Origin: an uncultured bacterium
Lineage (GTDB): Bacteria > Omnitrophota > Omnitrophia > Omnitrophales > Abzuiibacteriaceae
Length of the DNA: 64,000 nucleotides
Assembly (NCBI GenBank): GCA_964387845.1
Contig: CAYLXA010000006.1
Span: forward strand, 64,001 to 128,000
Direction of reading: 5' to 3'
A program made the translations under genes and the position numbers. How positions within the stretch are numbered: the first letter of the stretch is position 1; each line of letters begins with the position of its first letter. The notes below the pieces were generated by a model, which saw only the letters and a program-made list of their open reading frames with translations, made no database searches and had not been told where the DNA came from. Below, piece by piece: positions 25,491 to 49,400 of the stretch.

Positions 25491-28400
25491 ATGCGCCAGG
25501 TTGAAAAGAGTAAAACTTTTAATCTTTATCTAAAAGTTGTCGCGCTGATTGTTTTATTTACTTTTACGCTCAACACAATCGCGTGGGCTGACGGGTCTAG
25601 TAACTTAATTCAGTCGCTGCAGAATAATAAAGCCAGCACCTACCGTGACATTTTAGAATCCAACTTAGTGATTGATCAGTCCCTTCTCGACACTTCAATC
25701 ATTCCTGATAAAGTCGGGCACATCAAAAGCCGGTTTCAAGGTAAAAAGCCTCAGACGATTTACCATATTCAAGATGCGCACATCAACTACGATGCCCAGA
25801 TCAATATTTCCAAAATTATCGAGCAGGTATCAAAAGCAAACGGCACTGATTTGATCAACGTCGAAGGAGCCATGGGGCGACTGAACAATTACTGGCTCTC
25901 TTCATTTCCAAATGCAGAAGCGCGTGAATTGGTCGGTGATTACTTTGTCAGGGAAGGACGATTGAGCGGGCCGGCTTTCGCATCGATTGTCACACTTCCG
26001 AGATCAATCATCAATGGCGTCGAAGATGAAGCGCTTTATGAAGAAAACAGGCAGGCATTTTTAACGGCGCTCGCGTTTCGCGACCGGAATGAAGGGCTTT
26101 TGCAATCACTCCGGAATGGACTGGATCATGTGGCGCGCTACATTTTTCCGGATGATTTGCGCGAGCTCAGAATTCGCCATGACGCATTCCAGGAAGATTC
26201 GCTTTCGATGAAAGCATTTGTCCGGTATTTGGTGGAGTTGGCGCAGGCAAACAGCGTTAGCTTGTACCGTTACCGCCACATCGACGCGTTCATGAAATTA
26301 GTCGAGCTTGAAAAGTCGATCAATTTTGAAACAGCCGAAAAGGACCTCGAGGGATTATTGTCTGAGATTAAGAAGCGTATGCCGGCCCAGGATGTATCGG
26401 CTTTCGGGTTCAAAGTACTCCAATATCACCGCAAGAAATATTCCCGCAAAGATTTTTTTGAATATATTGATCAACTCATCAACAAATTACAGATTAGTGG
26501 CGAAGCGTTCATGCCGGCATTGAACTATGTGGCGTATATGCGCAGCTTCGACACAATCGGCGTGGAGCTTTTTGATGAGATCCGGCTCGCCGAGGATGAT
26601 TTGAAAAATAAATTGTTCCGCAACGAGACGGAAGTCAAGCTGGACCGGCTTTACCGGCTGCACGAATTGTTGAAGCACATTTTTGATTTCTCACTCACCA
26701 AAGAAGACGCCGAGTTTTTTTATTCCTATCGGGATGAATTTAAAATCACAAATTTCAAAGCCTTTATCGGCGAACAGGCGAAGGCGCTCGGTATTGAAGT
26801 CGAGCTGGATCCGAAACTCGAGCAGATTGACGATGATTTGCTGAAGGTCGAGAAATTTTACGAAATTGCTCTGAAGCGCGACAAAGTGTTGATCGAACGT
26901 TCTTTAAAAGCGATGGAAGCGGAAGGCCGCAAAAGCGCTTTTATAGTCACCGGCGGATTTCATACGCCCGGCATTGAACGCTATCTTCGAGAGCGTGATA
27001 TTTCTTATGTTGTGATCGCGCCCCGGATTTCTAGCAAAATCGACGAAGTCAAAGAAGCTATGCGCTATGAAAGCGCCATGCGCGATATGCCGTCCAAAAT
27101 CGAATCGCTGCTCAAAGAAGTTTACCAGCCGCAGAAAGCGATGATGCTGAACGATCCACGGTATCAAGTGTCGGCGCCGCAAGTGATTCGTCCGTTCGGG
27201 TCAGAAGGAAAGTTTGAAATTGGCGCCGGCGCAATTTTGCGCGGGTTTGTCGGAAAATCAGAACTTCGCCGGTGGCTGCCGGCTTTATCGGAAAATCTAA
27301 TCGCATCGGGCATCGATAGCAATTTGGCAGCACGCACACTGGAACGGTTTCAGGATTTCCAGCGAAACTTTGATTCTTACATCAAAGTCGAAATCAACAA
27401 GACCCATGTGATTGCGAGCAGGCTTCCGGATGGAAGAGTATTGATGACAGTGATGTATCCATCGAAAGATAAATCCGAAGTTGGCCGGCCGGGCGGTATG
27501 CATGATTACGCTAAAATTGCTGAAATCGGAAAGTTTGTCATTGAAGTATTTATAACGGATCGTGCTTTCTTGGAATCAATTTTGAAACGCGATGGTGCGA
27601 AGGTTGTTGAATCATCAGATTGGGTCTCTGAAGCATTGCCGCCAAGTTCACAGAGCACAGTTCCCGAAAGAGCCATTTCGGTTGATCTTGCCATGGCCAA
27701 GATGCATAACGGCGGCCAGACTTGGGAGTTATTGCAGAAAATCGCGCAAAGCAGCGACCTTAACTGGACTGCGATGAGCGTTAACGAAAAGTTGGCATCA
27801 ATTGAAAGTATTCTGATTGACCGGAAAATTAACCGGGACAATCTCGCGAGAGCCGCCTCCGAAGAATTAAAAATCATATCGCCATCCGCGGAAATCACGC
27901 TGCAATCTCGGTTCAGCGTTCGCGTCTTTATTTTTTTAGCGGAAAACGCCTTCGATTTAAAAAAGATGAGAATTAGGGATGAACTTTTATCCTTGATTCA
28001 ATCTCGTAACCGTTTTGATGAAGAGGTTGACGTAGCCGTATCCGCCGGTCCGGCCGCCTTGGAATCACTGCGCAGTGAACTTAGGCACTTAAACGCACTT
28101 GCGGGCGATACGCGCGTTGTGTCTCAGGCAGTCATTCGGGTCAATTCCGAGCTCCGAAAAATTTCAGCTCCCGTTTCAGAAGAAGTAAAGCCTGTTGCTT
28201 TAGAATCCGGCGCTCCTGCTGAAACTGCAAAAGTAGAAAAATCAGCCACAGAAGTTACGGAGCCGAAAGCACAAGAAGTAAAGCCAACGCGCGCTCCTCC
28301 TGCTCCAAAATTAAGCAAGGCGGAGATCATTAATAAAATTCTTGCTAAGCAAGCCGCAAAATCTTCAGAGCCGCTTAACTTTATTTCCAACATTTCACTC

Positions 28401-31400
28401 AAAGCAAAGACGGCCGACATTATCGCCGCAATCAAAGCGATTGGGTTTGATGATGAAGATCTCGAGCTTCTGTCGCAGCTTTCCGGCATTAACGCGGATT
28501 CTTCCGTTCAGGAATGGCGTTATGTTTACACGCAGGTCCGCCGGATCTTCGAAAAAATGTACAAAGTCCGAGACCAGCGCCACGGTGAAGCAAAAGCGGA
28601 ATCCAAAGAACCTTTGGTGGACCGCATTCTGCGCGCGTCCTGGAGTGCTGTGAAATGGTTTTCGAATCCATTCAAAGTGGGTAAGTGGCTGATCACGGTT
28701 GGCCCTCACTTGCTCGATAGTTTTTATTTTGGCTACACACGCCGCGCTTGGCAAATGACGCTTTTTGGAAAAGATATTAAACCATTTAACCGAGCGGATC
28801 ATATACAACAGGTTGTGGATACTTTGTCCGGAGCGATGTTGAATGCCAGAGAAAAGAACTTTGATTCATTTTTAAACCGGAGTCGGTTTGGAAATTCCAA
28901 TTGGAGCATTGTGTACCGTTTTGTTGATAAATACATCTCAAAATTATTTGTATTGCCGCACTTTGAATTTTTCATGAAACGCTGGAAGATGGCAGTTTTT
29001 GGTGTATTTGCACTCGGAACCGTGTCTGTGTTGCTGCCTGCAAGCGTCGCCGGCTACAGCTTGCTCGGTCCGGTGGGCATCTGGATTACAAGCGCTTTTG
29101 AAGGCGCAGGGTTCCTTAGCGTTGCTGCCAATGCTTTTGTTCATGCATTTACGGTTTCTTCATTTCTCAACACAGCGATTTTAGCGTTCATGCTTACTAT
29201 TCCTAATTTTGCAAAGCGTTTCTCCAATCTTCGCATGGACCGTATGATCATTACCCAGCTCGGGCGTTTGAAAAATCTGCAATCTTTGGATTATCCGGTT
29301 GTGCGTAAAGTTCTGAGCGATGTTACGCAGGGCGGGTTGCCCGTGGAGCAAAAATTACAAATCATTTTGGAATTGCAATCACTTCTTCCGCATGTCCGTT
29401 ACGATAATGACTCGCAGAAAACTTTATTTACGACTTTGGTCCATGACGAAGTGAGCCGAATTCAGGATGCGCTCAAAAGCAGCACGCAGGAACGCGCACC
29501 GCCAGTAGTTGAATCACCAAACTTGATCCAACGCTACATCATTTCTCCTCTCTTTGGTGTCATTCGCGCTACTTTCACAATCAACTTCGCAAAAGCGTTC
29601 GCAAAATCCATGTTTGGCATGCTGACGGTCGGTGCCGAAATCGGTGCTTTGGCGGGCGGCCATGCTCCAGGCGAGTACGGCGCTGCGCATTACATGGATG
29701 AATACCTGCTCTCGAAGCCCGTTTCATTCATCATGAAAAATATCACCGGCAATGCGGATTTCGATATCCAGGTTTCTTACTTTGAACCGGCGGTCAATTA
29801 CGTTGAACGCTTCATGATCAATGTCGGCCACTATGCGGTTGAAGGTGTCGAACACACATTCGGATTTAGTGCAGCAGAAATAGTCGCCAAAACATGGGCG
29901 AGCGTCCTCAATACTTTCGGCATTAAAACCGAGGTCGGTCAATTACTCTCAGAAGGCATCAGCCTTCAAGAAATTGAAGTGGCTCGTCAATTAGGCCTGC
30001 CGGCACAATTTCTAAAGTTCGGACAAAAAATACCAGAACCGCAAAAACAAATCGCCGCAGCGCCTGCCACAGGCGGCGCAGCGGGTATGGGACTTGCCAT
30101 GAACCCGATGCTGGCGATCGCTCAGATTGCCGCTATCAGCGCGATGGGTTCTACAAAAGAAGTACGGGATGGTACCGAATACAAAGATGAAAAGCCGAAG
30201 GGGGCGGCGATTCCGCCCGTTCTTTTTGAGAAATTTGAATTTGCGGTACCGCTTCATTCAAGCGTAGCAAATTTAGAAAACCTGAGAAAAGACTACGGAT
30301 CAGTTCCTGCTTCAGAAAGATACCAGGCTGCTCTGGCATTGCCAAAAGCCGAGGAAGAATATGAGGCGGCAAAGAAGAAAGCTTTCCTGAATTTGTTTGC
30401 CTCAGAGCGTCTGGCCGCAAAAGAAAAAGTTGATAGGTTGCAGTCGCTTACCGGAGATTCGATCTTAAAAGAAAAACAAAAAGTTTTCTGGAAACTGATC
30501 AAAGAAATTGACGAGCGCCAGAAATCCCTCGATAAGACCATCGAACAAATTTATAAAAGCGTTACCCATTACACTTCCGATAAGAAAGCAGCAGAACAAT
30601 TTATTGAGGAAGCCAGAGATCAGATTTCGGCGATGCGCGCGATGACGGATTATTTTTCCGCAGATGACGCGCGCTACGCCGTTAGAACCGGCGCCTGGCA
30701 GGTCATGGATGCCGCAGCTTCGGATAAAGAAGTAGCAAAAATTCGCGCGGATATGGCAAGCCGTGAACAAAAAATGGTGGGCCAACTCGAAAGAGTCAAA
30801 GATATTTTAGACCAGTGGCCGACCTATGTAGAAAGTGTTTTGAGCGGCGCTGACGTTGATGTGCCGGCACGTCTCATTGATGAAGAATATCTTCCATGGG
30901 GCGAGCGGGCAAAAGTTTGGCTGGCGGGAAAAGGCATTCCGAATGAAGTGATTGTTTCCACCGAAGGATTAATGACTTTGCTCCATGGTGTGCCTATTCC
31001 GATGCCGTGGGCTCAAAATGAAAGTTGGAAGGGGTCTTTACGGGTCGCGCAACATGATGTGAATCAGGGGCGGGCGGTTCTTGTTGTAACTGATCAAGGC
31101 AATGACTCTATCCGGCATGATGGTGCCGAAGTTTTTAGAGCAGGCTTGAAGGCAGGCATTAAAGAGGCTCTCGTGCTGCGTCATGACCTGATGCCATCGC
31201 AACGAAACAACTTCGTCGTAACGGCGACTTTTTATAGCGCTTCTGCTGAGCGGCTCATTCCTGTGCTCCTGGATGTGGTACGTCAGAATCCGGATATCAA
31301 ATTCAACGCGCGGATGTACGACACGACATTGCAAAAAACCAGTTCCAAACAAGCCGAAACAATCGCCAAACTGGAACAGGATGCTAAAGTTCTGCCCAAT

Positions 31401-34400
31401 CTTTTTGTTCTCAATTTGATCATGGATGACGGCGGTTATTCAAACAAGGGAATTGACGGCACGCCGGATCGGGTGGTCAATTATGAGGTGAGGCGCAACA
31501 ATGGGAAAGGTCCTTTTATCGGACATTTCCCCGGTATTGGCGGAGCTGACGACCCGGATACATTTGCTGCTGTTATGAAATTTAGAAAACAAGAGATAGG
31601 CGCGGCCTCTTCTGCAGCAGCAGAACCAGTTTCTGAGCCCAAAACGAGACATCACGTTGTTGTGGTGTATCAGGGAAAATCGGCCACACCTCCTGTCGAT
31701 AAGGTTGTTGATCAAGTTGAAGGATTGGGCGGCTGGCAGATCGCGAGAATGAAGGGCAATGAATTCAGCGATACAGTCCGTTCTCAAAAAGCGCTTGTCG
31801 CAAAAAAAGTTGAAGAATTCAAGTCTTTAAATCAGCCAGTAAAAGCGGTGACTCGCGTTGATCAATTTGAACGCGCTTTAATTAAAGAAACAGAGTCAGA
31901 AATCGTGCCGCAGCAAACCGCTGAGGTAAAAGCAGAGACAGAAAAGATTCAGGTTGCATTGACTAGCGCAATGCCGAAGCTTCAAGAGGTCGAGCCGGTT
32001 GCCGAAGAAGCGATTGAGCTTGTGTCGGCGGCACAAAAGAAAAGTGCTGTCGAGCAGCCGGTCTTGCTTTCGGATCTACCGCCCTTGTCCTATAGCCAAT
32101 ACCGCTCAGAACAAACCCCGGGCGAACAGCTTTCCGGAATTGATCAATTCGTTTCAAAAGATATTGCGGAACAAATGAGAAAGGATGCCAGCATTTTCTC
32201 ACCGCTTGCCGGCGCACCAGTCGGAACGCCGACGTATGGATTTAGGGACCAAAAGGGCGGGGATATTTTTGAAACTGAAAATCTGAGCGCGCTTGAGCTT
32301 AAGAATCTTGAGAATGAAAGCGAATTTCAATCTGCGGATTTCGCGACTTCCATTCATGTTTTTCTCAAAGCGCGCGATTTGATTAACCGAGGGGCTGCCG
32401 AACGCCGGCTCGAGCTTTTCCTCGAAGCGCTTCGAAAAGTCGAGCTCAGTCCGGACGGCTTGCTGTATGACCGTTACGATATCAAGCGACATTCTAAAAT
32501 AGGCGAGAAGACCAACCTTCAAACATCTAAAGCTATCTACGAATTGGCGGTTCAAATCCAGAGCGAGTACGAACAAATCGCAAAAGGCCGTAGCAAGATT
32601 GATATTCGCCTGATCAAAGAAAAGAATCTGATCCGGCTGGCAGGTTTGGTCAAAGAAAAATTTACGCGCGCACAAAACATCCGCTTACCTGAAATTCCGC
32701 AGCCCGAATTGCCGAAGCGGTTGTTTGTCGAAAAAGATGCCGAACCGCTTCAAATCGAAGAATCCGTCGCAGCATCCAAGCCTTTGCTTGCGCCTGAAGT
32801 GGTGCGCGTACCTCAAACCGCAGCGGTGAGCGGTGAGCGTGCGGTTGTTTCGAGCGTTGAAGAAATTGAGTTGGTGGCAGTGTCAACCCGGCCGCTTGTC
32901 GAAGAAAAAGTTTTGGAGCCGGCCGTTGAAAAGCAAGAGCCGGCGGTTGCGCTTGTTGAATCAATTCCGGCGCCGGAGCAGGAAAAAGTTGAACCAAAAC
33001 CGGCGGTCATATCAGTCCAATACGAAATGCCGGGAAAAGGCGGTGATGTTAAAGTCGCTTATCCGGAATTTGAGCCCGGCCAAGTTCAAGTCATGTTCCA
33101 AACGGAAGTATCCGTTCCGGAAAAACCGGCTCCGGTTCCTGCTTCTGCTCCGCCTAGCACGACTCAAGCCAATCAGCCGGCAAGCCTTCAGGCAATTGAA
33201 GAAAAAACAGTTCAAGCCGTTCCGGCCGCAGCGCCGAGTTTGGTTTCGGCGAATAAGCCCGTTTCAATTGATGAAAGAGAGCCGGTTGAAATGGAAATCA
33301 AAATTGCCCAACAGCCTGAGAAGGTTGAAGAAGTTGAAAAGGCGGAACCAAAGGTGCCCGCCCAAAAGTTGCGCATTCAGCTTCCGGATTTCAAGCGATG
33401 GATAAAATCCGCCAAAATTGCGGCTGCAGGACTCGTGGCACTTTCCGGCGCCTGGGTCAATGAAGTTTCGGCAAAATTTCAAGCAATTCCTCCCGCTACT
33501 GTTCAAAAGGCACCAGAAGTAAAAGAAGCCAAAGAAGAAATCGTAAAAGAAGAAATTGCACTCACTCCGCCCGTCAAAATTGAAGCACCAAGCCAGGAAA
33601 AATGGACGGATCTTGAGCATCAAAAGACGGCCGATGTAGTCATGGCGGCTTTGCGCAGCGCGCCGCAGGATTTGCGCGAGAAAGTTTTGGAACTTATCCG
33701 GTCAAAAGCCGGCGCTCCGGATTACATCCGAGAATTTGATGATTTGGTTCCGGTTCCTGAAGACATTCGCTCGCGCGCCAAAATAGAAACTGTCTCTCCG
33801 GGGCAGGAAATTAAATATTTCGGTGAAAAAGAATTTTGGGACGCCATGCAGGCAATTTATCCGCCGGATAAGGATCGTCCGCATTTTACTCCGTCTTATA
33901 TCCGCGACAATAAAGTTGCGATGACGCATGAAGAATTATTGAACCGAAAAGACCTTGAAATTTACGTGAATGGCCGATCGCTCGGCCAAAAATCAGCCGA
34001 TCATTTACGCCAATCTAAAGAACTCGAAAAATTACCCATTTTCTTTATCCGTGTCGGCGCCGGTTTTGTCGGCTTTGATTATACGGGTGCGACGATTTCA
34101 ATCGGTTTGCGCGGCCAATATTCATTGGGCCATGATTTAGCCGAGTGGCGGCAGGTGCTTAATGTGATGTCGGAAGAACATAAAGTAGCGGCAGATATTC
34201 TGAAACGTTACGTTGCGTTCAGGGCCGTTGGATATCAATACGCACAAGCGCAAGAAAAAGTGAGTAATGCGGATGCGGAAATCAAACGCATGAACGAACA
34301 GCTTGCGAAGGGAATCTATCAAGTCGCAACTCATCAGGACGAATACGCGATCGGAAAAGCCATCAGCATCATTCAGCATGAAATTAAAACTCAGCAACAA

Positions 34401-37400
34401 TGGCGTTACAACCAGTACGACACGAGCCGTGTTTTAGGCGAAATCATGAAGCTTGACTCGCGTCAAGTGCATGTTGAATTAAATTCCGATTATGTGCGCC
34501 AAATCCGAAAAGAGTTTGCGGATGCGCCCAATTCTCTGAAATCGTTGGATCCCTATAAGCAGCAGGAAATTTATTTGAAGACAGCGATGGAAATTTTGAG
34601 TGACCGGATTGAATTGGCCCAGAGGCACCTGTCCAGCATCAGCTACGAACTTCGTTTCGATATCTTTTTGGCCAATAAGGCTTCGGACCTTTTGGCTCTG
34701 ATCGGCGGCTTTGGCGTCAGGAAAGGCAACGACCGGACACTTGGGCAAAAATACATTGACATCGCCAAAAAACAGATCGACCGCTACAAACAGTACGGCG
34801 ATGAGCGTTACAAGGTTGAAAAACTGGTTCGTGATTATCAAAAATTGAAAGAAAGATACGACACGACCTATACGGAATCCGTGAAGGCAGCGCAAAAACA
34901 TTATGAATTGGCCAAAAAGTTGGATGCGCTCGAAGTCATTCCGATTAACGAACTAGAACAGGCTTGGAAGGCCTATGAAAGTCAACTCAAGGAGAAAGAT
35001 GCGCTGTATGTACAACTTCAACGCATTGTTGCTGAGATGGAAGGGCTCCGCACTGCCCAGCTTTCAGCAGAATCGATTGAGAATCCGTCGCCAACCATGC
35101 GCGAACTTCAAAAGCTTGAGCAGCGCCTCAAAGATACGGATCAAATTGATTCGTTGGTTCAAATCAGGGAAGCCGAAGGTGTCACCGGCAATGAGCTTCA
35201 GTTTTATAAACGCATCCAGCAAAATCCGGACAAGGAAAGATCGGATATTCAAGCGGAGCGGGTTGAATTGGTAAGACAGCTGCGCGAAGATGCGAGCCGC
35301 ATTAGAGCGATTCAGGATAAAAGCGGGCTCAATATTGATTATCTCTATCCTCTGGATTCTCGAAAAGGTGAATGGATGTGGAAAACCGGCCGGGCAATCA
35401 AGGGGTTGGACGGTAAATATTACACAATCCCAATGCTAATTCCCATTAAGGCCGAATACCAGAGTTATGCGGAAAGTTTGATGGAACGCGGCCTCGCAAA
35501 ACAAAATTTCCTGGGTAACTTTCAATCATCATTTTCGGACCGCCATATTGAAGACCAAGCTCACGAGTTAATGAACCGGTATCTCGAAATCAGGCCGAAA
35601 GACGGACAAAAGCCTGCTTGGAGCCGCGAGGAACGAACACAGAAGATAAAAGAATTTAATGAAATGGCAGAGAGTTATTTAAAACGCCTCGAGGAACTTG
35701 TTCCGGCCTACGCTGCGCTTGATTATGCAGGAAGGCCGAAAAGTTATGGCGAGCGGCTCATGTCCGATGAGGAGTGGCAAAATTTTCACAGCGAATACAA
35801 AAAATTCGAGCGCAGTTATTATGCTGCGCAAGAAATGGTTGCGGAATTAAGCCAGGAAATTTTGCCGGCGACAGGCGATGCCGTCAATCCGCAGATTGAT
35901 GTCTTAAAAGCGCAAAAGTTAGCGGCTGAAACGGCCAAAAAATCAATCGATCTCAACATGTTTGATGAAGCGACAAACATCGCCGATGCTTCTGATTTGA
36001 CAATCCCTGAGCATATCATCGGGCCCGCGACTGTAAGGGCACAAACCACCGATGTGCCGGTCCGGGCTTGGCAAGAAGGCTTATTGTCGGCGGCAATGCC
36101 GATGATCCGAAAGCAGTCCAACGTTCTTTTTGACCTCAATATCCAGGGCTACAACTTCGAATTAGAAAGACTCTTCAAAAAAGATTTTGAAACCAAGGAA
36201 CTCCAGGCAATTCCCGTAATCGGCTGGTTTGTTCCGGGCAGCGATTCTGAAATTACGGAAATGAGAGCGCAGGTGTTGGTTATCCGCCAGAAAGTCATGA
36301 AGCCGGATGACAGCGGTTCGGGCGGCGGCCTTGGCGGTGGCATGGGTGGTGGCGGGCAATTACAGCTTCCGGGCAAATTGGGCAAACTCCAACAAATGAT
36401 GGGACAGATGCAGCAATTGATGGGTTCGTTTCAGGGCCTTGGAAACGGCGCGCAAACATTTCTCGGTGCGGCTGGTCAACGGTTTCCGATGGTAGCCCGT
36501 GCACAGGGCTTGCTGCAAGGAATCAATGCTCAGCAGCAAATCTTTAATCAATTTACAGGCGGCCAGAATTCTTCCCTCCTGCCGTTTGTCACAGGTCAAA
36601 TGAATCAGCTTAATCAAACCGGCCGGATTCCGTCTGTCGGTCTCGCGTCTTCCGGAGCGACAGGGCCGCACGGAGCACTGCAAACATCGACACCGGGCCG
36701 AGTCAGCGGCGAAGCTTATTCGGCGGATGCGTTTAATCAGGGACTTGATTCACTCAGGCAGGGCGGTGATTTAGCGAAGGAAGTGACGGGTAAGCTGCAA
36801 GGTCAAGGCGGTGAGCAGGGTGGTATGACAGAAGAGATCGAATATGAAATTGCCGGCGTGTTTACGGTCCAATTCAAATTAACGGGCAGCAATGAAGAAA
36901 AACAGAATCAGCTGCGCACTCTTATTGCACTTAATGAACAAAATAAAGTGCTTTACGAAACTGACCAGCAGAAGAAACTCCTCGAAATCGCAATTGATTA
37001 TGAGGGTAAGGTCCAGTTGCTCAGGGCAAGAAAGCTTCACCGCGAATTTGTCAATACCACACGGCGAGCTATCCTCGATAAATTCACCGAGTGGCGTGTA
37101 ACGCCGGCGAAACAGGTCGAATTTGAAGCAGATTTAGCCGTCATCGACAAGAACATTGACGACCTAGAAAAAGAAATCGCCGAGACGCCCAATAAAATCA
37201 GGGAAGCGCTGAAGGTTACACCGGAAGCTGCCAACGGCCTGCTGCACATGATGAAATCTGAAATCGAAAAGCACGGCATTGTCGATATTCGCGAACTGAA
37301 CGGCATTGAGAATTTACGCCGCCAAATTGTTGAGAACCCATATGCCGACCGGGCCGCAGGGTACCGTGTGCTTGCTGCTCAGCTGGAAGAATCGCGCGCA

Positions 37401-40400
37401 AAGTTATTTGAGAAAATCAAGAACGCTTATCAGGTTGAGCTGAGCGTCAGCACAAAGCTGGAATTCAATGTGGTGCTTCAGGAATTGGGTTACGCGATCC
37501 GCAATGCAGTCGCGGGTGAACAGCGCGGTACGATTAATGATTTTCTGGGTCAGATTCAAACGGGCCTGAATCCGCAGGAAATGCAAGGCCAAAGAGACCG
37601 GTTAGAGGCGTTGACGACCGCGATCCGGAAAAGCGGTCTCAAGCGCGAAGTGATGGATGCTTTATTTGAAGTTGCGATCGTCGAACGTGTCATGCAGGAA
37701 CGGGTCCGTCAAAATGAGAAAAATCGAATGGAGCAGCTCATTCGTTTAGAGGAAGCGAAGCTGCGTCTTCGGCGCGAAGAAATCCAGCTTGCAAAAATCC
37801 ATGAACAGAAAAGAATCACGCCCGCGGACAATTGGATCAAGCAAGTCCTTCTGTCCGCGGAGATCTATATTCAGGAGCTTTTGCTTATGGGTGCGCGGGA
37901 TGATCTGGCGAAAGCGATAATGCAGTCGCTTTCTGCGATCGCGATGAGCGAGGAAGAAATCCGGTCTTTGCAGGTTTTAACCAACGCAGAGCAGAGAATT
38001 CATGAATCAAACCGCCGGATCGGTCTCCTACAGGCGCAAGCCGTTGAAAGTGATGTGTCAACCCGGGAAGAATTTTTTGAACTCCAGAGAGAGTTGAAAT
38101 GGCTTTATGAGCGAAGAGACCAATATTCCTTGCCAAGCACACCGGACGGCTCTTTGAATGAGTTAGACCAAAAAATTGCAGAAAATCATAAAGCCATTCA
38201 AGCATTGGTTGCTGATGCGCTTCTGCGCAATCCGAAAATCAAAGAAAAAGTTACGAAAGAAGAAGTCATTCGTGATGAGCTCTTAATTTCTAAAAAGAAT
38301 ATCGAAGAAGAAAAGCAGGCTGTGATCAGCCGCCACGATCAAGAGGTGAAAGTGATTTTGGATCCGATGATCCAGCTCCATCAAGAACGTGCACAATTGG
38401 GAATTGATGCGGCCAATCGGCTCGATGTTGAGCGCGCCAAAAAGGGAGAGGACCCGGTTTTGGTCGAGCTCAGCGATGCGCGCCTTGCGCAAAGCGTGAG
38501 CGAAGTGGAGGGAATTGACCGAAACGCTGTCTTGGATGTGATGAGTAAGGTCATGAACGTGATCGGTGATATTGAAGTGGCGCAAACCATGCTGCGGGAA
38601 TGGGACGGAAAAGCGTTACCCCGTTACCTGGATCGCCTGCTCAGGAATCTGTATTTTCTGGCCGGCACCAATCAATTAGACGATGTGCTGCGCGGGACGG
38701 CGCAAGGGTCATTCAAAATGGGTATCGGCGGTTCGCTCATTAGCGATGAAGACCTGAGAAATTTAATCCGCGCGGAAGCCTCGCGCTGGGCGATTCGTGT
38801 GAAAGAAGTTGTCCGCGATAAGATCATCCGGGACGAGCAGGCAAAAATCTACAGCGAATATCTGCAGTATGTCAGTTTGATTGAAGAACTTTATATCGAC
38901 CTCAAAAATATCCGAGCCCTCGAGAAAGCAATCAAGGCTTACGAAGCCCGCGCTAAACGCCAATACGATACAGAGCGCTTAAACGATGCAACCGGCCCTT
39001 ATGAAAAATTAGAACAGGCGAAAGTCCGGCTTTATGTGTCTTTAAAAAGAATCAAGGTCCAGCGCGCACAGCTCGAATTTTTGACTCAGGAATATTTACC
39101 GCACAATGTGTCGGTCTTTAAATCCGTCAAGGCGTCAGGGAAGAGTGTTGAGGAAAATCTGGAGATCGAATTCCGAACCTCGGCGGCTCATGAACAAGGC
39201 GTCGACTTGGAAGCGCTTGGGGCCATGCTCAGCGGTGAAGTGGCTGCCGAAAATCCGTTTCCGGCCGGTTCCGACAAGGCAGTGTTTTGGAATAAATTTT
39301 ATAGATCCAATATCCGCGGCGATGAATTTATCCGTGAAGTCCGCAAGCTGCGGATGTCTCCGGAAGATGTGTCAAAACTCAAAAAAGAAAACGGGCTCGA
39401 GCAATGGATTTGGGGTTCTTCGGACAATCAGTTTCAAGTCGCAAAGGCCATGAACGAAAATTTAAATGCCGATGCCATTGGCTTTTTCCTATTTCCATTT
39501 GGCAGCTTCAAGTTTGACATCAACGCGTTTTTGGGCGGTTCCTGGGACTTCAAAAATAAACCCGAGTTCTTGAATATTATCAACGCTTCAGCCGAAGTGG
39601 AGTTTGACTGGGGCGCCAAATGGCAAGCCTTCCAATCGGCCGTTCAGAAATCTTTGAATGAAGCGTTTAAGCTAGATGAAATTTCAAATGACGCCGTCCG
39701 CCGACGCCATCAAATGCTCATGGAATATGCGTTTATGCAAATCATGTACGAAGCGTCCCAAGAAATATTGAAAACCGCCATCGAAAATGAATCCACATGG
39801 TATAAAGCGCTCATGAGGGGCAAGATTGACTGGGATAAATATTACACATCAAACACGCACGGCCTTGCGCGTATTTGGGACCTCGAGCGTACATTAAAAG
39901 AAGAATGGGTTGCATTGCATGCAGCCAGCCGCAACATTCAAAATTCTCTTGAGGAATCAGGAATTCAAAGCACCTCTGTTTTGATCCAGTCTTTCCCGCT
40001 TCCATTGCCGCCTGAAATTGAACACAAACTGGTGTCGGAAGCCGAGATTCAATTACAAGAGCATGCCGCCCAACAAGAAAAGGCGGCTCTTGAAAAAGCT
40101 GCCCAAGATGCAGCTGCAAGAACGAAATTCTTTTCCGAATTTAAAGACTTATTTTCAAGATTAAAATCACTGACCGAGAACATGTTGGTTAATCTCGAAA
40201 ACGTCATGAATAAACTCGGCGACCTGCAGGATCAATATAAGCCCACGCAGCATCACGGGGAGCTCTCACCTGAAGCAAAAGCAATTTTGCCTGACACGAA
40301 TGAATTTCTGAGAGTCTTGAAAGTCAAAACCCAGAGCGGTGTTGATTCTGTTGATTTGGAAACATTTGCCGAACGAATGGCAACGTTTGGAAGAGAGCGG

Positions 40401-43400
40401 CATATGTCGTCCGAGGATCTGCAAAATCTAATACGGTCTGCGATTGAAATTGCCAAAAAATTAGAAGCTGCACCGGGCGAAGCCCCGAATGAATTACAGA
40501 CAAAATGGGCTGCCATGTCTGCGCCCGGCACAAAAGCGGACGGCTCTGCGTTCTTGATGAGTGAACGTTGGCCGCCATTCCTGGAAATTCCTTTGCGGCA
40601 TCTGTTTACTCAGGAAGAAATCATACGCTCGAGAGGTTCTATCGCTGATAAGAATCTCAATTTATATCAAATCGGCGCCATTCTACTTTCCGCTATGCGC
40701 GAGCAAGCGGCTAAGGAGCTGGACTATCGGTTTGAGAACAATTTAGACGAACTGGTAAACGGTGTTGAAGCCTACAAACAAATCCGTGCCGGCTCCGGCG
40801 ATGCGTCAGCTGTGCAGCGCTATCTAAGTTGGTATAGGAAATGGGTGATCCCCGTAGGCAGTGCCGAGTCACTATTTTCAACCGGAGTTCTCCTTTACCG
40901 TCCTTGGGTTAAATTCCAAAGAGCCGGGGATCAGGAAATTAACATTGATGACATCAGACAGCATTGGTCGTTTGTGTCAACGTCATTTGTGAAGCATATT
41001 CAAAAATCCGAGAAATTTCAGGCAATCGCGCAATATTTAGGTCTGGATCCGGTTGAGTTTTTTGACAGTCAAAAAGATCAAGGCAGGCTCTACGCCATTA
41101 TTTCAGAACTGCTTAATACCGGCATTATTAAGACGCTGCCGACAACCGAAGCCGAACTGGAAGCTCTGAACGCCGAAATTGATCATTTCTTTGGCGAGCT
41201 CATGCCTTTGATTGAAGAACGCAAGTATTTCTACCTGACCGTAGGCGCTCTTCCGAATTACAGTGATTTAACCCAAATGCAGCATTACACCGCATTGGAC
41301 GGCAGATTAACAGGAACCGGCGGAGCGGAACTGCCATTCGCTAAATTCCAAGAAGATGCAGCGCGGATGGAAGACGGTATCGGCAAGTTACAAAAACTCT
41401 TACCTTCCGATATTATTTTTTATCAGCAAGTTAAAGAGGCGAAAAATGTTTTGGATGTTATCAAGAATGCCTCCGATTACTCTCAAATTTCAGACTTAGA
41501 AGGTCTCATGGACCATTTGCGAGAAATCGTGGACTACGCCCGCGAAACCTATGCGTCGTTGCTGCTGGGCGATGCCTACTATCATTATGGATTTTTCCGG
41601 GAGAATAAAGCAGTGCTGGTCCAGTTAAATTTAATAGATAAAAAGGATCTTAACTCCAAGGGGGCGCTGAAGCCGGATAGCTTGCGGCCAGTTACGCAAA
41701 AGTATAACCAGCTACTTCTCCATTCAAAGGATTACATTGAGCATTTTTACTTGGGTAAACCAATTGATTTCTCAAGCATGGATCAAATTGGTGTTTGGAA
41801 TGCGCTTGCGCAGACCAAAGCCGCCGGTTTGGATGATACGGTTTTCTCTGCGTATTTGAATTGGGCAAGCCGAATTGCAGGTATTCGTGAGAAAAGTGCG
41901 CTGTCCGATGCTAACCGCGAGCTTGCAGCGCAATTATGGAAAATCATTCCGGGACTTCAAGATAAAATATCAGAACAAAAATATGCGGAAGCTCTCGCAT
42001 CAGGCCTTGCGGTCCATATTCTTTTAAATCCCGAGCTGACCGAAGCTGATTTGATCCAGCTCATACAAAATATCAAGGCAATGTTGCAGAATCCGGAGTT
42101 GGTAGAGAGCGTTATACGAGAGTCACAGTCGGAGCTGGAAATTATATACGGCGAATTACGCTCCATTGATTTAACACGGCAGAAAGATTTTGGCATTTTC
42201 TTCAACGCATTTGCGGAAGCCCATGAATTGGGATTCAGCCAGTTTCTGGTCCGTCATCAGAGAACTATGAATTTGATTCAAGAGCATCAACGCATCCGGG
42301 AGCAGGAGAAAGGCACCGGCTCTCGAGCGGAAACCGCTTTGAGCCGCGCTATCCTGATCGGCAGTCAAATTGAAAGAGTTAAGAACGGTGACGGCGCAGT
42401 ACAGATTGATGAAATCTCATTCTTCCAAAATCAAAAAGCGCGCAATTCGGTCATGTGGGTTTTGAGCGGCATGGCAGACGAAGGTGTTGATCCTTTTGTT
42501 TTGAAATCTGAAGCTATTTTGGATTTTCTTAGGGAATTTTATTCAGATCAGCCGGTTCGTTACGATCATCTTGGCCGTGTTAGCGTGGATGCCGAGTCGA
42601 AAACAGCTGTGGAATTAGCAGCCGAGCTTGCTCGTGAGCGTGAAGTTGTATTTCAAGGCCAGGACGCACTCACTATTTCGGCAGAAGGCATCAAGCAAAG
42701 CCGTGTGATTTGGAACCGGGTGATGGCAGAGTTGGGCGGCATGGCGGACGAAGGCCTCCAAACCTGGATCCAAAAGCATCGCGGCAGCGATAAGCAAATC
42801 GGCGTCTTTCCAATGCTCTCAAACCGCGAACAGTTGAACAAATTATTTCCGTCTATTGAAGCATTCTATCAATCTATATTTGGAGCTGCCAATACACCCG
42901 AAATCAATCCAGAGACTTTCAAAGCCAATAAAAGGGTACAGATGCTTGTCACAGCCTGGTTGGGTTCGGCTGCTGAAGAGGGATTGGCAGAATGGAACGC
43001 CAAAAGCGATGTGATTGCTCGAATATTAAGCAATCCTGAAGAAAGAAAGCAAGTGATCGAAGCAACGCGGGAATATGCACATGCTCTGGAAAAAATATTG
43101 AAGATTGATTATCCGGAAATCAGCGAACAATCTTTGGTTGATGATCGCCGCGCGCGCGCTTTGGTTTTGGCTTGGACGGGCGCGCAGCAAGAGGACGGAA
43201 AAGTAAAATGGGCACGGAAAAACTCGGATATCATCACTTTCTCAGAGCGAGTCAATGCGCAAGCCGATTTTGCGGAGGGATTGGATAATGTCACGAGGCA
43301 TTATTATGAGGCCAAGTATGGGGAAGCGGTCGGCAGGTCCTGGACGCCGAGCCAACGAGGCCAGCAAGTCGGTTTGATTTTCATGCTGGCACGCCAGTAT

Positions 43401-46400
43401 GTGGAAAATCCAAATCTAACGGATGGCCGGCTGATCGAGTATGTTAACGCAATGGCTGATCTTGCCCCTGTCTTTATCGGAAGAGATGCATCATCCCGTT
43501 CGTTTGATCAATCCAGAATTCATCAAACCTATTTGAGGCTGATTGGTGAGACGAAATCGCGCCATGATCAGCAGCATGAAATGGGATGGGTTGATGCAGA
43601 ATTGGCGTATATGGCCGAACTGATTGGCTGGGATGGAGTTAATTGGAAGAAGCGAGACCGCTGGCGCTCACTAAGTTCTTCCGAAAAAATCGAGCACCGC
43701 TATCGAGTGCTCGAAAAAGCGACGGACCCTGTGATCCAGCAAGAAGCCAGGGATTTGATGGCGCTGGTTTCTTCCAAATCTTCGGATCAATGGGATCTGC
43801 GCGCTCATCCTTCAGACTTGGGCTTTTTGGTGACATGGGCAGACATGAAAATGGAGGCCGGGGAAGCAACCGATCTTTTCGGACAATACCGGCATGTGAT
43901 TGATTCTTCGGCATTCAGCCGTTATTTAAAGGAATTTGATATTGCCCAAGAATTCCGAAAGGAACTTGCGTCGACTTTTTCTGAAGTTGTGAAGAAGGCG
44001 AACGGGGAAGACGCGGACCGAAACCAAATCGAGCGTTTTTATGAACTCATGGGCCGCGTGTCATCTTTTGCGAAATTTACATCACTGCAATTTGATCAAA
44101 AAATAAAAGTCAATTTGGAAGTCATCGATGCGCTGAAGCGCTATTATGGCCAGTCTGCTTCTGATTCCAGCCAGGCAATGATCGACGGCGTCATTGATTT
44201 GTTATCCGTCCTTAAGATTGAGCCGGTTGAGCTGGCCGGAATGCAAGCTGAGAATTATTATCAACTCCGCGAAATGATGTACCTCATGGCAAAGATTTCT
44301 GAATACCGCAGAAACCGCGAGATGGCAAATGACGGCCCCGTTCCGCAAGCCTATGTTGAAGATATGAAAAGGGAATATAGGTCTGTTTTTGTTGAAAGTA
44401 TGCTGCCGGGATTTGCGCAGAAAATAGTGCCGGCCAAACACGGAAAATTGGAAAACTGGATCGGTGATTTTGAAAGCATTATCCGTGAATTGGCTGATTA
44501 TCCCATAGAGCTTGAGAGCAGCGATGCAATTTCTCAATATAATTTTGCGCGATTCCTGAAAAATCTAGAAGAGGAAGGCATTGTGCTTGATGACGCGTCA
44601 GTTAAAATTTACGAGCGGGTGTTCAAGCAGTACCAGCTCATGGGCCTCGCAAGCTGGTGGCTTGATCAGAAGCTTCCTGAGGCCGAGGAGCAATTTACGC
44701 TTTCTGAAATTAAAGAAAGGATTCAGAGAAAGAAGCTTGTCTGGGCTCTGAATGAGAAATACTGGAATTCAGAAAGTTTGCACATGCCAGTAACTGCGGA
44801 CGAGATATCATTCTTGGCCGATTTAGAGCTTTACGAAGACGAGTATGAACACTTTTTTAGAATGAGTGCCCTTTTCCAGAACTGGGCATCAGCTCACTTG
44901 GGCCGCCATCTTTTCTTTGATGAAATTATCTACTTCTATTTTGCTCCCGGTAAATATTTCGGTGACCTGGTCATGCCATTCCGCGGCGGCTTGTCTCGGC
45001 TTTTAACTTGGGGCCAGGACCCCGATTTGCTCTCCAGGTTTAGAGCGAAACATTTATTTGAAAATGTTTTAACCGGACCCGAACAAGCGCTTTATCAAGT
45101 GGCCATGAATCGAGAGAATGAAGAAAGGCGCTTTATTTTGTGGCATGGACAGAAACAGTTGCTAAGAGTGATTGGGCTGGGCCCGGATTATGAAGATTAC
45201 TGGTATGACATTCTGCATGAAAAGCAAACGCTGGGCGAATATGCAAGCGAGAAATATCTTAAAGAGTTGTTGGTAATGGGGCGTGTTCTGAGCGAGGGTG
45301 TTCGATGGCTTGCACTCGGCAATCACTTTTCATATGACGACAACATGCTGACTGATGAATTTAAGCGGAATCAATACATCATTTTAAGGCTGCTGACACG
45401 CCGCGAATACCGCATATTGACTTCAGATGAAGAGAAAATGAGCATCAAAAAGTTGATTGAGTATACGCGCGATCAAACCAAAAACAAGAAAGTCGAAATT
45501 GAAAATCCTTCGGAATGGGTTGAATCGCTAAAGGAATTAGCCCGAGCCCATAATCGTGTTATTGAAACCGAGCAAGAGCTTAAAGAAATCATTAAAAGTA
45601 TTTTATGGGATGCGGAAACGATTATCGACGAAGCTGATCGCGAATACGATGTGAAGCTTGATCAGGATTCTGTCCTGAAAGTAATCATGGAGCAGCGCAT
45701 CAACGGAGAGCTGCATCAAATCACCAAAGCAGAAGAAATGATTACAAAACATTTCGCCAATTCAGTTATTGGCAGGAATTCGATCGAATTGAGCAATGAA
45801 GAAAATCAGATGCCTGTCTCTGTATTGATTGAAAAATGGCTCAACGATTATGAACTTCAAAATACGCCGATTGCAGGCCTGAAAGACCGCTGGATATTGG
45901 CTGCCAATGACAGATCGTTGGATTATGTTTCGATTAAGACGATCTTTTCAGACCTTAAAACAATGCAGGACGCTTGGCGTAATGCGCCGCTGTTTAGGCC
46001 GATGGATTTAATCGAGTCATTAAAACTTGTGAATAAAGTCCGGCGCTTTGGTTTGGATAATATCGGCATTGTGGAGCCTGAAATATTAACGCCCGTTCAA
46101 AGAACGGAAAAATATAAGAAGAATAAGAAATTGTTTTTAGGAATGATCGGAAGCGATTTGATCGCGGATTCAACACAGCAAATCGCCATTCTTTTCAACC
46201 AGCAAACTAAAAACTGGAGCATTCAAAAAACAATTGACGATCTTGAGAAAGACAAATCAATTGAAACAAAACAAGAAAGCTTCCGCTTGATCCATGGTGC
46301 CGCCGTTGTATTGGTCCTGTCTCTTATTTTAGTAACCATTCGGGCGCATTATTTGAAATGGAGACAAATGCAGTCGGCTAAGAAGGCAGGGCTGCCGACA

Positions 46401-49400
46401 CCGCAAACGCCGTATCGCCAGGGTTTGTTCAAGAAAGTGAGCGAATCGGTTAAAGGGTTTTCGCCTTTGACTTGGGTCAATATTATTTATTTTGCCTCGG
46501 TGTTGCTGATCGCCGGCTCTATGTCGTGGGCTTACTTTGTTGCGCACGCTTGGGCAATTTCACATTCAACGTTTTCGACTTTGATGGTCATTATGTTTTC
46601 TTATTTGAGTTTAACCAACGCTCACATCTTGGTTGATCGTCTGATTACGCTCCCAAAATTCAGGGACCGATTATTTAGAAAGCAGCCTGTGGATGATGTA
46701 AAAACACCTAATTTTAAAGATGCTTTCCGTGCAGGAAATTTTCCTCCCGGGCATCAGGCGGTTGTTGCCATTATCACTCAAGCCAAAGGGAACACTTTTG
46801 GGAAGCTTGATCAAAGAACCGGCGAGTTGAAAGGGCAAGTGATTGAAAATTTAATGGTCTCATTAAAGAATAATCCCGGCGTGCCCGGTGTCATTATTCA
46901 GGCCGGACAGGATTTGGATGATGTAGAAACGAACCGGCAAATCCGCATGATCGAGGCGCTTGAGAAGGCGTTAGGAACGCGCGTTTATTATTTCAGGCGC
47001 AATAATTTATTTTCGGCAGGTGATATCAATCTTGAGAAGAAATTCGGTGCTTTCCAGGAATATATGCGATTTGTCGGTGACGGAGCTATGTTTGCCGAGA
47101 ATGAAACCGATCAATATCCGGGCCGTCACTTTGGCTTGGATGTTACGAAGAATGTGAGTTGGGTTGCGGGTTGGACAGTTTTAGCAGCAACGCTTTTCAA
47201 TGCATTAATTCCCGGGCTGTTATTGAATCCTCTTGGGCTTGTCGTTGGCATTCTGGGAATTTCTCTTGGCGTTGGGTATCTTTGGACTTTGTGGAAATAT
47301 GGGCAAGCGAAGCGAATCTCAATTAAGACCATTGTCGGAAAGAATGAGCTCTCGGCGTTGACGCGTTCAACCCTTCCATATTATGACGTCATCTACGGCG
47401 ACTTAGGAGCGATCGGTTTTGTCGATATGGAAAGCGGACAATCTCTCCAAGGAAGCAGGACTTGGCGTGCGGACGAGGCATATTGGCAAAAAATAAAATT
47501 AGACACTGAACACCCGAACAAAATTTGGCTTTCATTTATCTTGGACGACAAAAACAAAGTTGGCATGAACTCTACCAACGAAGACACGGAGGGTCTGACA
47601 GAGGCGGATCGATGGCTGCGAGACCGAATGAAAGTTGAGAACCCTCTTGAGCGGCGCGAACAAAATGCCTATTACGAAGCAGTTCGAAAAGCAGCGGAAA
47701 CGATGTATCGCGAAAGTTGGGCAGCCATGGGGCAGCCCGTTTATGAAATTGGCAACCCGAATGCCAGCATGTTTTCGGAGATGCTTTCAATTGCTGCCCG
47801 AGTCGGTGAATTTTATGCGGGCGCGCAGAAAATATTCGGCCGCGGACGGGCGAATTTTACCGGCAAAGGGCCCGTTGTCGTGGACAGGTGGCTGCATGGA
47901 ACGCGTGAACGCCATCAGAAAATCATGTGGGGTTTCGGCTTGGGCAGTATCGGCGGTGTTTTGGTGGGTGCGCTGATTTCGTCTTTGCTCTTTGGTGTTG
48001 GGAATATCGGCTTCGGAATGCTAATTGGATATTTCTTGGGCGGAGCAATCCTCGGGAATTTTGAAATGCGGTACGGAACCGCATACGGCGTTATTTATTA
48101 CGGAGAACTTTCACATGATTATGCGGAAGGCGGCAGTGTGGGTGCGGCCTATCTCAGCAATGTCGGAATCACGGAAGATGCAACAACGGATTTGGCTAAA
48201 GAGAACGAGCGCGGCCCAACGCGCTGGTTCCAAGGCGTTATCCCGTACTGGCGTCATCAATTTGGCCCGGGCTACACACTCATTGATCGTTGGATGATGT
48301 TTCTGGCGGAGAAAATGTATTTAAATGATACGTTGTTCCTATTTTGGTTAATAGGCGGATTTGTCGGGATTACGTTTTCCGGTTTGGCTGACACTTTCTA
48401 TCCAGTGGCGCGTCTTCAAGAATATTCAGAACCTCTTTATGCAATGGGGTTGTATATATTGAACATGTTGGTCATCATAGGTTTTGCTAACTTTGTTGGA
48501 GCTTTTTGGAAGAGCGCCGATAACGCAGGCGTCGCTACTTCTAAGGAGAGGTTCCAGGCAATTGCTCGTTCCACGATGATTTATCTCAACAAACCCTTTA
48601 TCACGACCGCATACGCAATTCCGAACTTGTTCCGCGTATTAGTCGGCGGCGAACATCCGAGAGCGCGCGATTGGGCTCCGGAGCACAAGCTTAGGGCATT
48701 GGTTTTTGGATCACTTATTGGGGCAATTAATTTACTCTTACTTGCCAACCTTTTTGTCGGCTGGGTGTCGATTTCGTGGATGGTGCCGGCGGCAGTTTTT
48801 GTGGCTTCATTTTATGCGATTCATCGTTTGGCGGGGCGGTATATTCCGGTAGCCCGAATTTTTGCGGAACTTTTATATTTAACTCTCAAATTTTCTCTAT
48901 TTGCTATTCCAATCGTGGTTTTATCGGCCTATTCGTATATAAATGAACCTTTAGTGGCTTTTCTCGAGAAATTCTCGTTCATCAGCTTTATCAGCGCACC
49001 TATCCAGGCGCTCTTGATTCAAATTTTCGGAACTATCATTTTAGAGGCCAAAGCATTGAAATGGATTCGTGAACTTGAAGAAATTTTAAAAGAACCGCTG
49101 CCTTGGAGAGGGTTTACGCTGGTCGCCGGGTCGAAGGGGCCTTTGAAAATGTATGAATCGGCTGTGATGGTAAAGTGGTCGTTGATTACTACCGTTGCGG
49201 TGATTTTATCCCACGTAGTCATCACCTCTAACTTTTGGGTTATTTCAGGATGGGGAATTCCTCTCTTCGTGTCCTGGTCAATTGGGTGGTTTTATGTTTG
49301 GTATACCTCAAAAATGATGCCTGATTTTGTTCGTGAAACAAAAACAGATAAATCCGGAGAAGTCATTAAAGATGCTCAAGGTAAAGCCAAACTATTCCCG

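Follow-up and report, generated by a model that had tools for sequence, protein, structure and literature searches.

A candidate low-complexity variable hinge with amphipathic helices in a giant membrane-anchored Omnitrophota protein

The window (the whole 64,000-nt stretch of DNA that was analysed) encodes a giant protein with a Gly/Gln-rich segment of unusual composition. With a probability of about 0.5, we read this segment as a lineage-specific low-complexity variable hinge that carries conditionally folding amphipathic helices and lies between two conserved helical modules. The segment and the gene that contains it are located as follows.

36300..36835, + strand: the low-complexity segment, aa 3604–3782 (179 aa), from translation and composition
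25491..53606, + strand: the giant ORF, encoding a long membrane-anchored Omnitrophota protein, from the ORF list and translation
25491..27200, + strand: signal/anchor helix (aa 9–30, by hydropathy) and family-defining N-terminal domain (aa ~60–570) of EreA/ChaN/TraB/Tiki-like fold
28992..29201, + strand: first internal TM cluster, aa 1168–1237, from a Kyte-Doolittle hydropathy scan
46284..49913, + strand: second TM cluster of ~16 helices, aa 6932–8141, from the same scan

The ORF runs uninterrupted over 28 kb and encodes 9,371 aa, and the peptide quoted in the original prediction is reproduced exactly when 36300–36835 is translated in its frame. GC content and GC1/2/3 are those of the flanking genes over the full length. 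Very long membrane-anchored proteins are a known class in Omnitrophota (West-Roberts et al. 2023, 10.1101/2023.11.21.568195; Nielsen & Lui 2026, 10.64898/2026.06.07.730766). The giant protein belongs to this class, given its Omnitrophota genome, its signal/anchor and TM clusters and its N-terminal homology, although at 9,371 aa it falls below the cut-off of at least 10 kaa used in the catalogue of Nielsen & Lui 2026. The best NusA matches of the host (64–69% identity) are from Candidatus Omnitrophota MAGs. The N-terminal ~570 aa match 156 long proteins (E down to 1.7e-206), mostly from Omnitrophota/Omnitrophica where a source is named. Like other members of the class, the protein is sequence-unique: beyond the N-terminal domain it is largely an orphan in sequence searches, with zero homologues found for the C-terminal 2,471 aa, and Pfam, NCBIfam and PHROGs hold essentially no family for it. 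It is thus 'Pfam-dark', as are 15% of the published catalogue. The neighbourhood differs, with T2SS/pilus or GH genes next to the published genes and the RND efflux and nusA-infB operons here. Rfam and tRNA scans found nothing in the window. The 9,371 residues include no cysteine, an amino acid that is unmentioned in West-Roberts et al. 2023 (10.1101/2023.11.21.568195); both papers are silent on segments of low complexity, disorder or Gly/Gln richness.

The most obvious peculiarity of the segment is its composition. Gly accounts for 41 of the 179 residues (22.9% versus 5.4% in the remaining protein, ~4-fold; binomial P = 3e-15) and Gln for 14.5% (versus 5.0%, 2.8-fold; P = 1e-6), the joint enrichment of Gly, Gln and Met reaching P = 1e-22. 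Charged residues (D+E+K+R) are depleted, at 11% versus 26% (P = 4e-7). The original description as Gln/Gly/Met/Asn-rich is accurate for Gly and Gln, marginal for Met (4.5% versus 2.2%, ~2-fold; P = 0.04) and wrong for Asn, which is at background (3.9% versus 3.7%; P = 0.5). Leu equals the protein average (10.6% versus 10.0%) and Pro is unenriched (3.9%). The segment contains the most extreme 80-aa window of the protein for Q/N/G/M/S content (0.625; mean 0.234, sd 0.063) and also its lowest-entropy window. It further includes the longest run free of acidic residues:

36312..36710, + strand: longest Asp/Glu-free run, aa 3608–3740 (133 aa), with 6 basic residues, net charge +6 and a fraction of charged residues (FCR) of 0.045

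All other long acid-free runs of the protein fall in TM clusters, and its other linkers are of charged P/E/V/A/K types (FCR 0.25–0.29). In 120 related long proteins (412,505 aa) not a single 80-aa window reaches a G+Q+N+M fraction of 0.39, compared with 0.59 in the segment. That the composition is unusual, as originally claimed, therefore holds against both the protein itself and its relatives. The same 120 proteins hold 384 non-TM low-complexity segments, none of them of the G+Q type; low-complexity linkers are thus common in related long proteins, which favours a linker reading.

The segment is true coding sequence, and its compositional bias is upheld at the level of the protein. The bias cannot be attributed to assembly collapse, because tandem, direct and inverted DNA repeats are absent across the segment and codon usage is mixed for both Gly (GGT 15, GGC 18, GGA 6, GGG 2) and Gln (CAA 14, CAG 12). 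In addition, the segment shares its reading frame with the homologous blocks upstream and downstream of it, and in an independent Logan contig from SRR15237813 the frame is open across the region and onward to the contig end. Local GC is raised (0.55–0.56 versus ~0.47), as might be seen if a low-complexity repeat had collapsed in assembly, if the frame were shifted or the stretch non-coding, or if the contig had been wrongly joined, but this rise is what Gly codons are expected to produce. An artefact of any of these kinds, including the low-complexity collapse that the original prediction had allowed for, is therefore largely refuted and scarcely credible.

Comparison with the sole collinear and syntenic orthologue, P0003/L082, which is truncated by a contig end, places the segment within a variable region flanked by conserved blocks.

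33780..35198, + strand: conserved block A, upstream, aa 2764–3236, collinear with P0003 aa 2355–2825 (BLASTP E = 1e-15; Smith-Waterman z = 32 against shuffles)
35199..36929, + strand: variable region between the blocks, aa 3237–3813, without significant similarity (z = 1.9 and -0.4)
36930..37490, + strand: conserved block C, downstream, aa 3814–4000, collinear with P0003 aa 3149–3335 (Smith-Waterman z = 12.6, 0/300 shuffles)

The segment fills the 3' part of the variable region, which measures 577 aa here versus 323 aa in P0003 and is unalignable between the two. The low-complexity stretch of P0003 in this region (aa 3061–3113) is V/P/T/A-rich. The expectation that composition would be conserved where sequence is not thus fails in this one orthologue, which has a shorter, V/P/T/A/S-rich linker at the same place. 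Flanks that are conserved around a part variable in sequence, length and composition are what a linker would display, and the position of the junction, as judged from a single truncated orthologue, appears to be conserved while its composition is not. The closest GTDB representatives (L002 and L003) do not have the giant gene, as seen from synteny via NusA. A long ORF at the same site in a further genome (L004) was rejected as an orthologue because it is dissimilar to the giant protein (z <= 2.2). Two other candidates, P0001 and P0002, share only aa ~1–1500, sit in different genomic surroundings and are truncated by contig ends.

Broader searches returned no relatives of this part of the protein. 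There was no match in a word-indexed search with aa 3251–4150, in an exhaustive HMMER search of aa 3100–4299 against 1.84 billion representative proteins, in scans of genome and metagenome contigs with aa 3401–4000 or in metagenomes scanned with the alignment of block A. The PDB sequence search gave noise only, and the segment alone drew a single Pfam hit, YlbD_coat, at E = 0.6. A TolC/OEP-like 'helix-strand-loop-strand-helix' arrangement was considered for the flanks and dropped: Pfam shows no trace of OEP at E <= 1, and the single-sequence AF2 model is too poor to judge it.

Internally, the segment is divided into five parts. AF2 assignments in this list and below come from a single-sequence model with pLDDT of 25–43, which is unreliable.

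36309..36356, + strand: N-terminal Gly hinge, aa 3607–3622, DSGSGGGLGGGMGGGG, with muH of ~0.03–0.16 and no periodicity; coil in AF2
36357..36626, + strand: uncharged amphipathic core, aa 3623–3712, of 3–4 Gly-punctuated helices, from muH, helical wheel and AF2
36627..36710, + strand: Ser/Thr/Gly/Pro coil, aa 3713–3740, with muH of 0.05–0.17; coil in AF2
36711..36800, + strand: charged amphipathic helix, aa 3741–3770, with muH of 0.30–0.38; AF2 helix at 3746–3770
36801..36824, + strand: C-terminal Gly/Gln hinge, aa 3771–3778, GQGGEQGG, from sequence

Composition-matched shuffles say nothing about scores that depend on composition only, but they are informative on residue order. On the Fauchere-Pliska scale, the mean muH of the 90-aa core is 0.313 versus 0.184 +/- 0.034 in shuffles, none of 2000 reaching it, and the periodicity peaks solely at 100–110 degrees (z = 3.7–3.8); on the Eisenberg scale the amphipathicity is weaker and not significant (P = 0.09). 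Since shuffling abolishes the amphipathicity, residue order matters. The helical wheel puts Leu, Met and Phe on one face, with two Lys at its start, and uncharged Gln, Gly, Ser and Asn on the other. At aa 3629–3652 the polar face reads GQQGQQQGSGN, uncharged and Gly-rich with Gln in place of Ser/Thr, opposite KLKLMMMLMFQLG. AF2 draws helices at aa 3631–3661 and 3666–3688, with low pLDDT. The core is thus a string of Gly-punctuated amphipathic helices and not a random coil-type repeat, with the reservation of P = 0.09 on the Eisenberg scale.

The ordered hydrophobic spacing, the avoidance of acidic residues and the atypical composition exceed what a pure spacer needs, and the segment may therefore do something specific. 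One such function would be binding to a membrane, the cell's own or that of prey, or to a hydrophobic client, with uncharged Gly-punctuated helices folding onto it in the manner of ALPS-type sensors or of the Met-rich groove of the SRP54 M-domain. ALPS motifs (ArfGAP1 and others) have an uncharged face of small and polar residues including Gly, with bulky hydrophobics opposite; their canonical polar face is Ser/Thr-rich. The core resembles them in its charge-free, Gly-containing polar face and bulky hydrophobic face, and its hydrophobic moment at ~100 degrees lies above the composition-matched expectation, as in ALPS-like amphipathicity (Fauchere-Pliska; Eisenberg P = 0.09). The 133 acid-free residues with net charge +6 also agree with putative membrane binding, as does the membrane anchoring of the protein, whose class has been proposed to contact prey (West-Roberts et al., 10.1101/2023.11.21.568195). 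However, Gln prevails on the polar face, unlike in canonical ALPS, the helices occur several in tandem and in a bacterial context, and the nearest TM cluster is ~2,400 aa away. Moreover, Pfam, HMMER and PDB searches found no homology to such families, and the orthologue P0003 does not have the segment. Accordingly, we consider a membrane- or client-binding module unlikely.

The original prediction was of a cohesive, prion-like domain in which the Q/G/M-rich, low-charge segment drives self-association into a mesh or condensate. Prion-like domains are documented for bacteria (PMC6400439), and several properties of the segment fit such a role, namely its enriched Gln, its very low charge (FCR 0.045) and a FoldIndex on the compact side. 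The L/M/F spacing is compatible with heptads and could support Q-rich coiled-coil association. Charge depletion and Q and G enrichment are shared with yeast-type Q/N prion-like domains and GLFG/FG nucleoporins. By the Michelitsch-Weissman criterion, a prion-like stretch has at least 30 Gln+Asn per 80 residues; the maximum here is 24, at aa 3630, and Asn is at background. Our re-implemented, PAPA-style score tops at 0.081 near aa ~3685, above the PAPA limit of 0.05, but FoldIndex there is +0.15 instead of negative, and no window anywhere in the giant protein satisfies both conditions. The FG-like mesh that had been suggested, which would call for several GLFG or FxFG motifs set apart by uncharged spacers, finds no basis in the residues, as the 7 Phe in 179 aa form neither FG nor GF dipeptides. 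Prion-like domains of the yeast type are normally poor in Leu, in contrast to the average Leu and twofold enriched Met of the segment, and the ordered amphipathic spacing is a further difference. Finally, P0003 does not have this composition, and the segment occurs once per 9,371-aa chain, without repeats. A prion-like or condensate-forming domain is therefore quite improbable. Some cohesion and self-association of the uncharged core is still conceivable.

The surroundings had been described as coiled coils of a giant scaffold. What stands of this is a helix-rich stretch, ~5,700 aa long and TM-free by the Kyte-Doolittle scan, between the two TM clusters, in which the flanks of the segment are 59% and 81% helical in the low-confidence single-sequence AF2 model. 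Heptad regularity, by contrast, is barely above shuffles: in a crude scan, strict-heptad windows cover 3.9% of the protein versus 1.1–3.4% in block-shuffled controls, those nearest the segment being aa 2907–2951 and 3952–3991. Within the segment, L/L/M/M/M/F occupy a/d-like positions over ~3 heptads, yet there is a Gly in every heptad, a residue that canonical coiled coils, with hydrophobic a/d and otherwise polar positions, lack along with Pro.

Returning to the variable hinge, the segment would occupy a junction fixed in position and free in sequence within a fast-evolving mosaic giant. Gly-rich hinges (aa 3607–3622 and 3771–3778) bracket the core, and the whole is probably flexible and, in solution, compact rather than extended. 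Its main job would be the mechanical uncoupling of the flanking modules, and the amphipathic helices may fold only upon meeting a hydrophobic partner, possibly the helical modules next to them, further copies of the same protein or a membrane. Gly/Gln/Pro-rich disordered linkers are familiar in bacteria from the intrinsically disordered linker of E. coli SSB and the P/Q-rich tethers of FtsK and ZipA. Like these, the segment is low in charge, G/Q-rich, set between folded modules and poorly conserved in sequence and length between orthologues; it differs in its unenriched Pro and helically spaced Met/Leu/Phe and has no sequence similarity to them. A more speculative and rather improbable extension is that the acid-free, Gly-punctuated Gln/Met/Leu array forms a 'sticky joint' in a giant protein of the surface or membrane of a host-dependent bacterium, a joint which on contact folds and self-associates or inserts in a target membrane. 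If true, this would give bacteria a counterpart to cohesive low-complexity domains, with amphipathic helices replacing FG or Q/N motifs.

Taken alone, the segment is of little weight, since modules are commonly joined by low-complexity hinges, and the prion or condensate reading fails standard sequence criteria. Its ordered, uncharged amphipathic pattern is nonetheless atypical among the 384 low-complexity segments of relatives, and the ~180-aa fragment offers a cheap and well-defined probe for conditionally folding or membrane-active elements in the giant proteins of uncultivated bacteria. The surrounding gene offers more, with its complete lack of cysteine, an EreA/ChaN/Tiki-like N-terminal domain found in more than 150 long proteins and its presence or absence at a conserved chromosomal site. 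The segment would also mark a junction at which a giant Omnitrophota protein tolerates wholesale sequence replacement, which may help to explain how such mosaic giants evolve.

The Gly/Gln-rich segment (36300–36835) is in frame within a single forward-strand ORF (25491–53606) encoding a giant membrane-anchored protein of 9,371 aa, and our translation of aa 3604–3782 is identical to the peptide quoted in the original prediction. The host is an Omnitrophota bacterium, its NusA being 64–69% identical to those of Omnitrophota MAGs. The giant gene is bordered on one side by an RND efflux operon (OEP, MFP and two AcrB) and on the other by a 196-aa gene followed by nusA-infB-rbfA-truB-ribF. Scans against Pfam, NCBIfam and PHROGs recognised essentially no family in the giant. 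The giant fits a published class of Omnitrophota proteins (10.1101/2023.11.21.568195; 10.64898/2026.06.07.730766) that are very long, anchored in the membrane and often 'Pfam-dark' and unique in sequence. The segment lies within its ~5,700-aa TM-free middle. The features of the giant (all forward strand) are:

aa 9–30: signal/anchor helix
aa 1168–1237: TM cluster
aa 3607–3622: Gly hinge of the segment
aa 3623–3712: uncharged core of the segment, 90 aa
aa 3713–3740: S/T/G/P coil of the segment
aa 3741–3770: charged amphipathic helix of the segment
aa 3771–3778: GQGGEQGG hinge of the segment
aa 6932–8141: ~16 TM helices
50256–50801 (aa 8256–8437): first HD-like repeat, near the C-terminus
51453–51992 (aa 8655–8834): second HD-like repeat, near the C-terminus

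The two HD-like copies are diverged (25% identical to each other). The second contains the motif LAVNLHDIGY and has two weak matches, one to Pfam HD (E = 0.024) and one in NCBIfam to the GlnD/PII uridylyltransferase HD region (E = 3.8e-5). Another internal repeat, at aa 5581–5916 (42231–43238; offset ~84 aa), aligns aa 5581–5843 with 5665–5916 at 24% identity (E = 5e-13) and has no family assignment. The C-terminal ends of four apparently complete relatives, P0013, P0016, P0018 and P0019, are alike (...AMAKSA, ...AVQYSA, ...AVESSA and ...QIGKSA), and the giant itself ends in ...ERLIGRFA (~53560–53603); the similar short motif may be a shared C-terminal signal.

The giant ORF has no in-frame cysteine codons (TGT 0, TGC 0), whereas its two remaining frames contain 285 and 445. 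Given 0.70% Cys in the 17 flanking genes, ~66 Cys would be expected (P ~ e^-66). Cys is scarce in its closest relatives too, with 13 of 120 being Cys-free and a family mean of 0.26%, and cysteine is not mentioned in West-Roberts et al. 2023 (10.1101/2023.11.21.568195). At a conserved site (25200–53650), the giant gene is present in some relatives and absent from others. It follows AcrB2 in a closer relative (L082), while two more distant relatives (L002 and L003) have no giant gene there, the 196-aa gene and nusA coming immediately after AcrB2. At a fourth locus, L004, the position just before the 196-aa gene is taken by another ORF, Cys-free and helix-rich, which is at least 1,172 aa long, runs off the contig and has no detectable similarity to the giant.

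The unusual composition of the segment is genuine and lies well outside what chance would give. Relative to the remainder of the giant, it is enriched in Gly (22.9% versus 5.4%, binomial P = 3e-15), Gln (14.5% versus 5.0%, P = 1e-6) and, marginally, Met (4.5% versus 2.2%, P = 0.04) and depleted in D+E+K+R (11% versus 26%, P = 4e-7). Asn is at background level (3.9% versus 3.7%, P = 0.5), so the label 'Asn-rich' was wrong. The segment is the lowest-entropy and most extreme window of the giant, and aa 3608–3740 form its longest Asp/Glu-free run (133 aa, with six basic residues); all remaining long acid-free runs are inside transmembrane clusters. A set of 120 long relatives totalling 412,505 aa reaches at most 0.39 G+Q+N+M per 80-aa window, versus 0.59 in the segment, and none of its 384 non-TM low-complexity segments is of the G+Q type (8 are Gly-led and 1 Gln-led). 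Other linkers of the giant, aa 2417–2709 (32739–33617) and aa 883–988 (28137–28454), are P/E/V/A/K-rich (PEVK-like), with an FCR of 0.25–0.29 versus 0.045 in the segment core. The segment is overlapped by a reverse-strand ORF of 107 aa (36360–36683), in all likelihood a side effect of the bias in Gly/Gln codons and not a gene.

Assembly error, the caveat raised in the original prediction, is highly improbable. The DNA has no tandem, direct or inverted repeats, and codon usage is mixed for both Gly (GGT 15, GGC 18, GGA 6, GGG 2) and Gln (CAA 14, CAG 12). Selection on the protein, rather than slippage or collapse, accounts for the bias. In each 3-kb slice, the giant ORF agrees with the 17 flanking genes in GC content and GC1/2/3 pattern. 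Furthermore, a Logan contig from run SRR15237813, with the same infB neighbourhood, carries an ORF that stays open over 6,244 codons to the contig end and covers the segment region.

The N-terminal ~570 aa of the giant are common to 156 long Omnitrophota proteins. No relative of aa 3100–4299 was detectable among 1.84 billion representative proteins, nor of the C-terminal 2,471 aa by word-indexed search. One of the 156, P0003 (locus L082, contig OBEQ010469814.1; ending at aa 3380, where the contig stops), is a syntenic orthologue and follows HTH, OEP, MFP, AcrB and AcrB genes; its neighbouring RND genes are 61–73% identical to those of the window, except for OEP (46%). Identity between the two giants falls from 46% in the N-terminal domain to 26% (aa 1067–1501) and 21% (aa 2764–3236). 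The orthologues are mosaic: conserved blocks are kept on either side of aa 1501–2763 (29991–33779), which are unalignable with P0003 aa 1536–2354 (z = 0.55); P0003 aa 1733–2029 form a Glycoamylase (PF10091)/DUF3131 (PF11329) module that the giant lacks. Homology restarts at aa 3814–4000 (P0003 3149–3335, z = 12.6). Between the blocks at aa 2764–3236 and 3814–4000 lie 577 aa in the giant, with the G/Q/M segment at their end, and 323 aa in P0003, closing with a low-complexity stretch rich in V/P/T/A/S (3061–3113); both begin with a GGSGS-like motif. Thus, in this one orthologue, the position of the linker is conserved and its length and composition are not, contrary to the compositional conservation proposed as a check.

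By its sequence, the segment qualifies neither as a prion-like nor as an FG domain. Q+N peaks at 24 per 80-aa window, where the classical threshold is 30, and the PAPA-style peak of 0.08 falls where FoldIndex is positive, so that no window qualifies as prion-like. The suggested FG-like character finds no support, FG and GF dipeptides being absent. A cohesive, prion-like or condensate domain is improbable. As for the flanks, 'helix-rich' is fair, being 59% and 81% helical in an unreliable single-sequence AF2 model of aa 2901–4100 (mean pLDDT 36.9), while 'giant coiled-coil scaffold' says more than a crude strict-heptad scan bears out, with 3.9% of residues in heptad windows versus 1.1–3.4% in block-shuffled controls.

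The core is more than composition. Its mean hydrophobic moment (18-aa windows, Fauchere-Pliska scale) is 0.313, a value that none of 2000 composition-matched shuffles reaches (0.184 ± 0.034), and the excess is confined to 100–110 degrees, the alpha-helical period; on the Eisenberg scale it is weaker (P = 0.09). On a helical wheel, aa 3629–3652 have a hydrophobic face KLKLMMMLMFQLG and a polar face GQQGQQQGSGN, with L/M/F also at a/d-like heptad positions and Gly in each turn-pair. The same unreliable AF2 model places helices at 3631–3661, 3666–3688 and 3746–3770. The ordered amphipathic spacing, total lack of acidic residues and family-atypical composition leave room for a specific function. 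A specific module binding membranes or hydrophobic clients, ALPS-like or Met-bristle-like, seems unlikely. We favour, with a probability of roughly 0.5, a variable hinge particular to this lineage, with Gly-punctuated amphipathic helices that would fold conditionally. The original observation is real and its interpretation supported in part only. The segment belongs to a known kind, the inter-module low-complexity hinge, within an already described protein class; the incidental findings on the giant gene are more notable.
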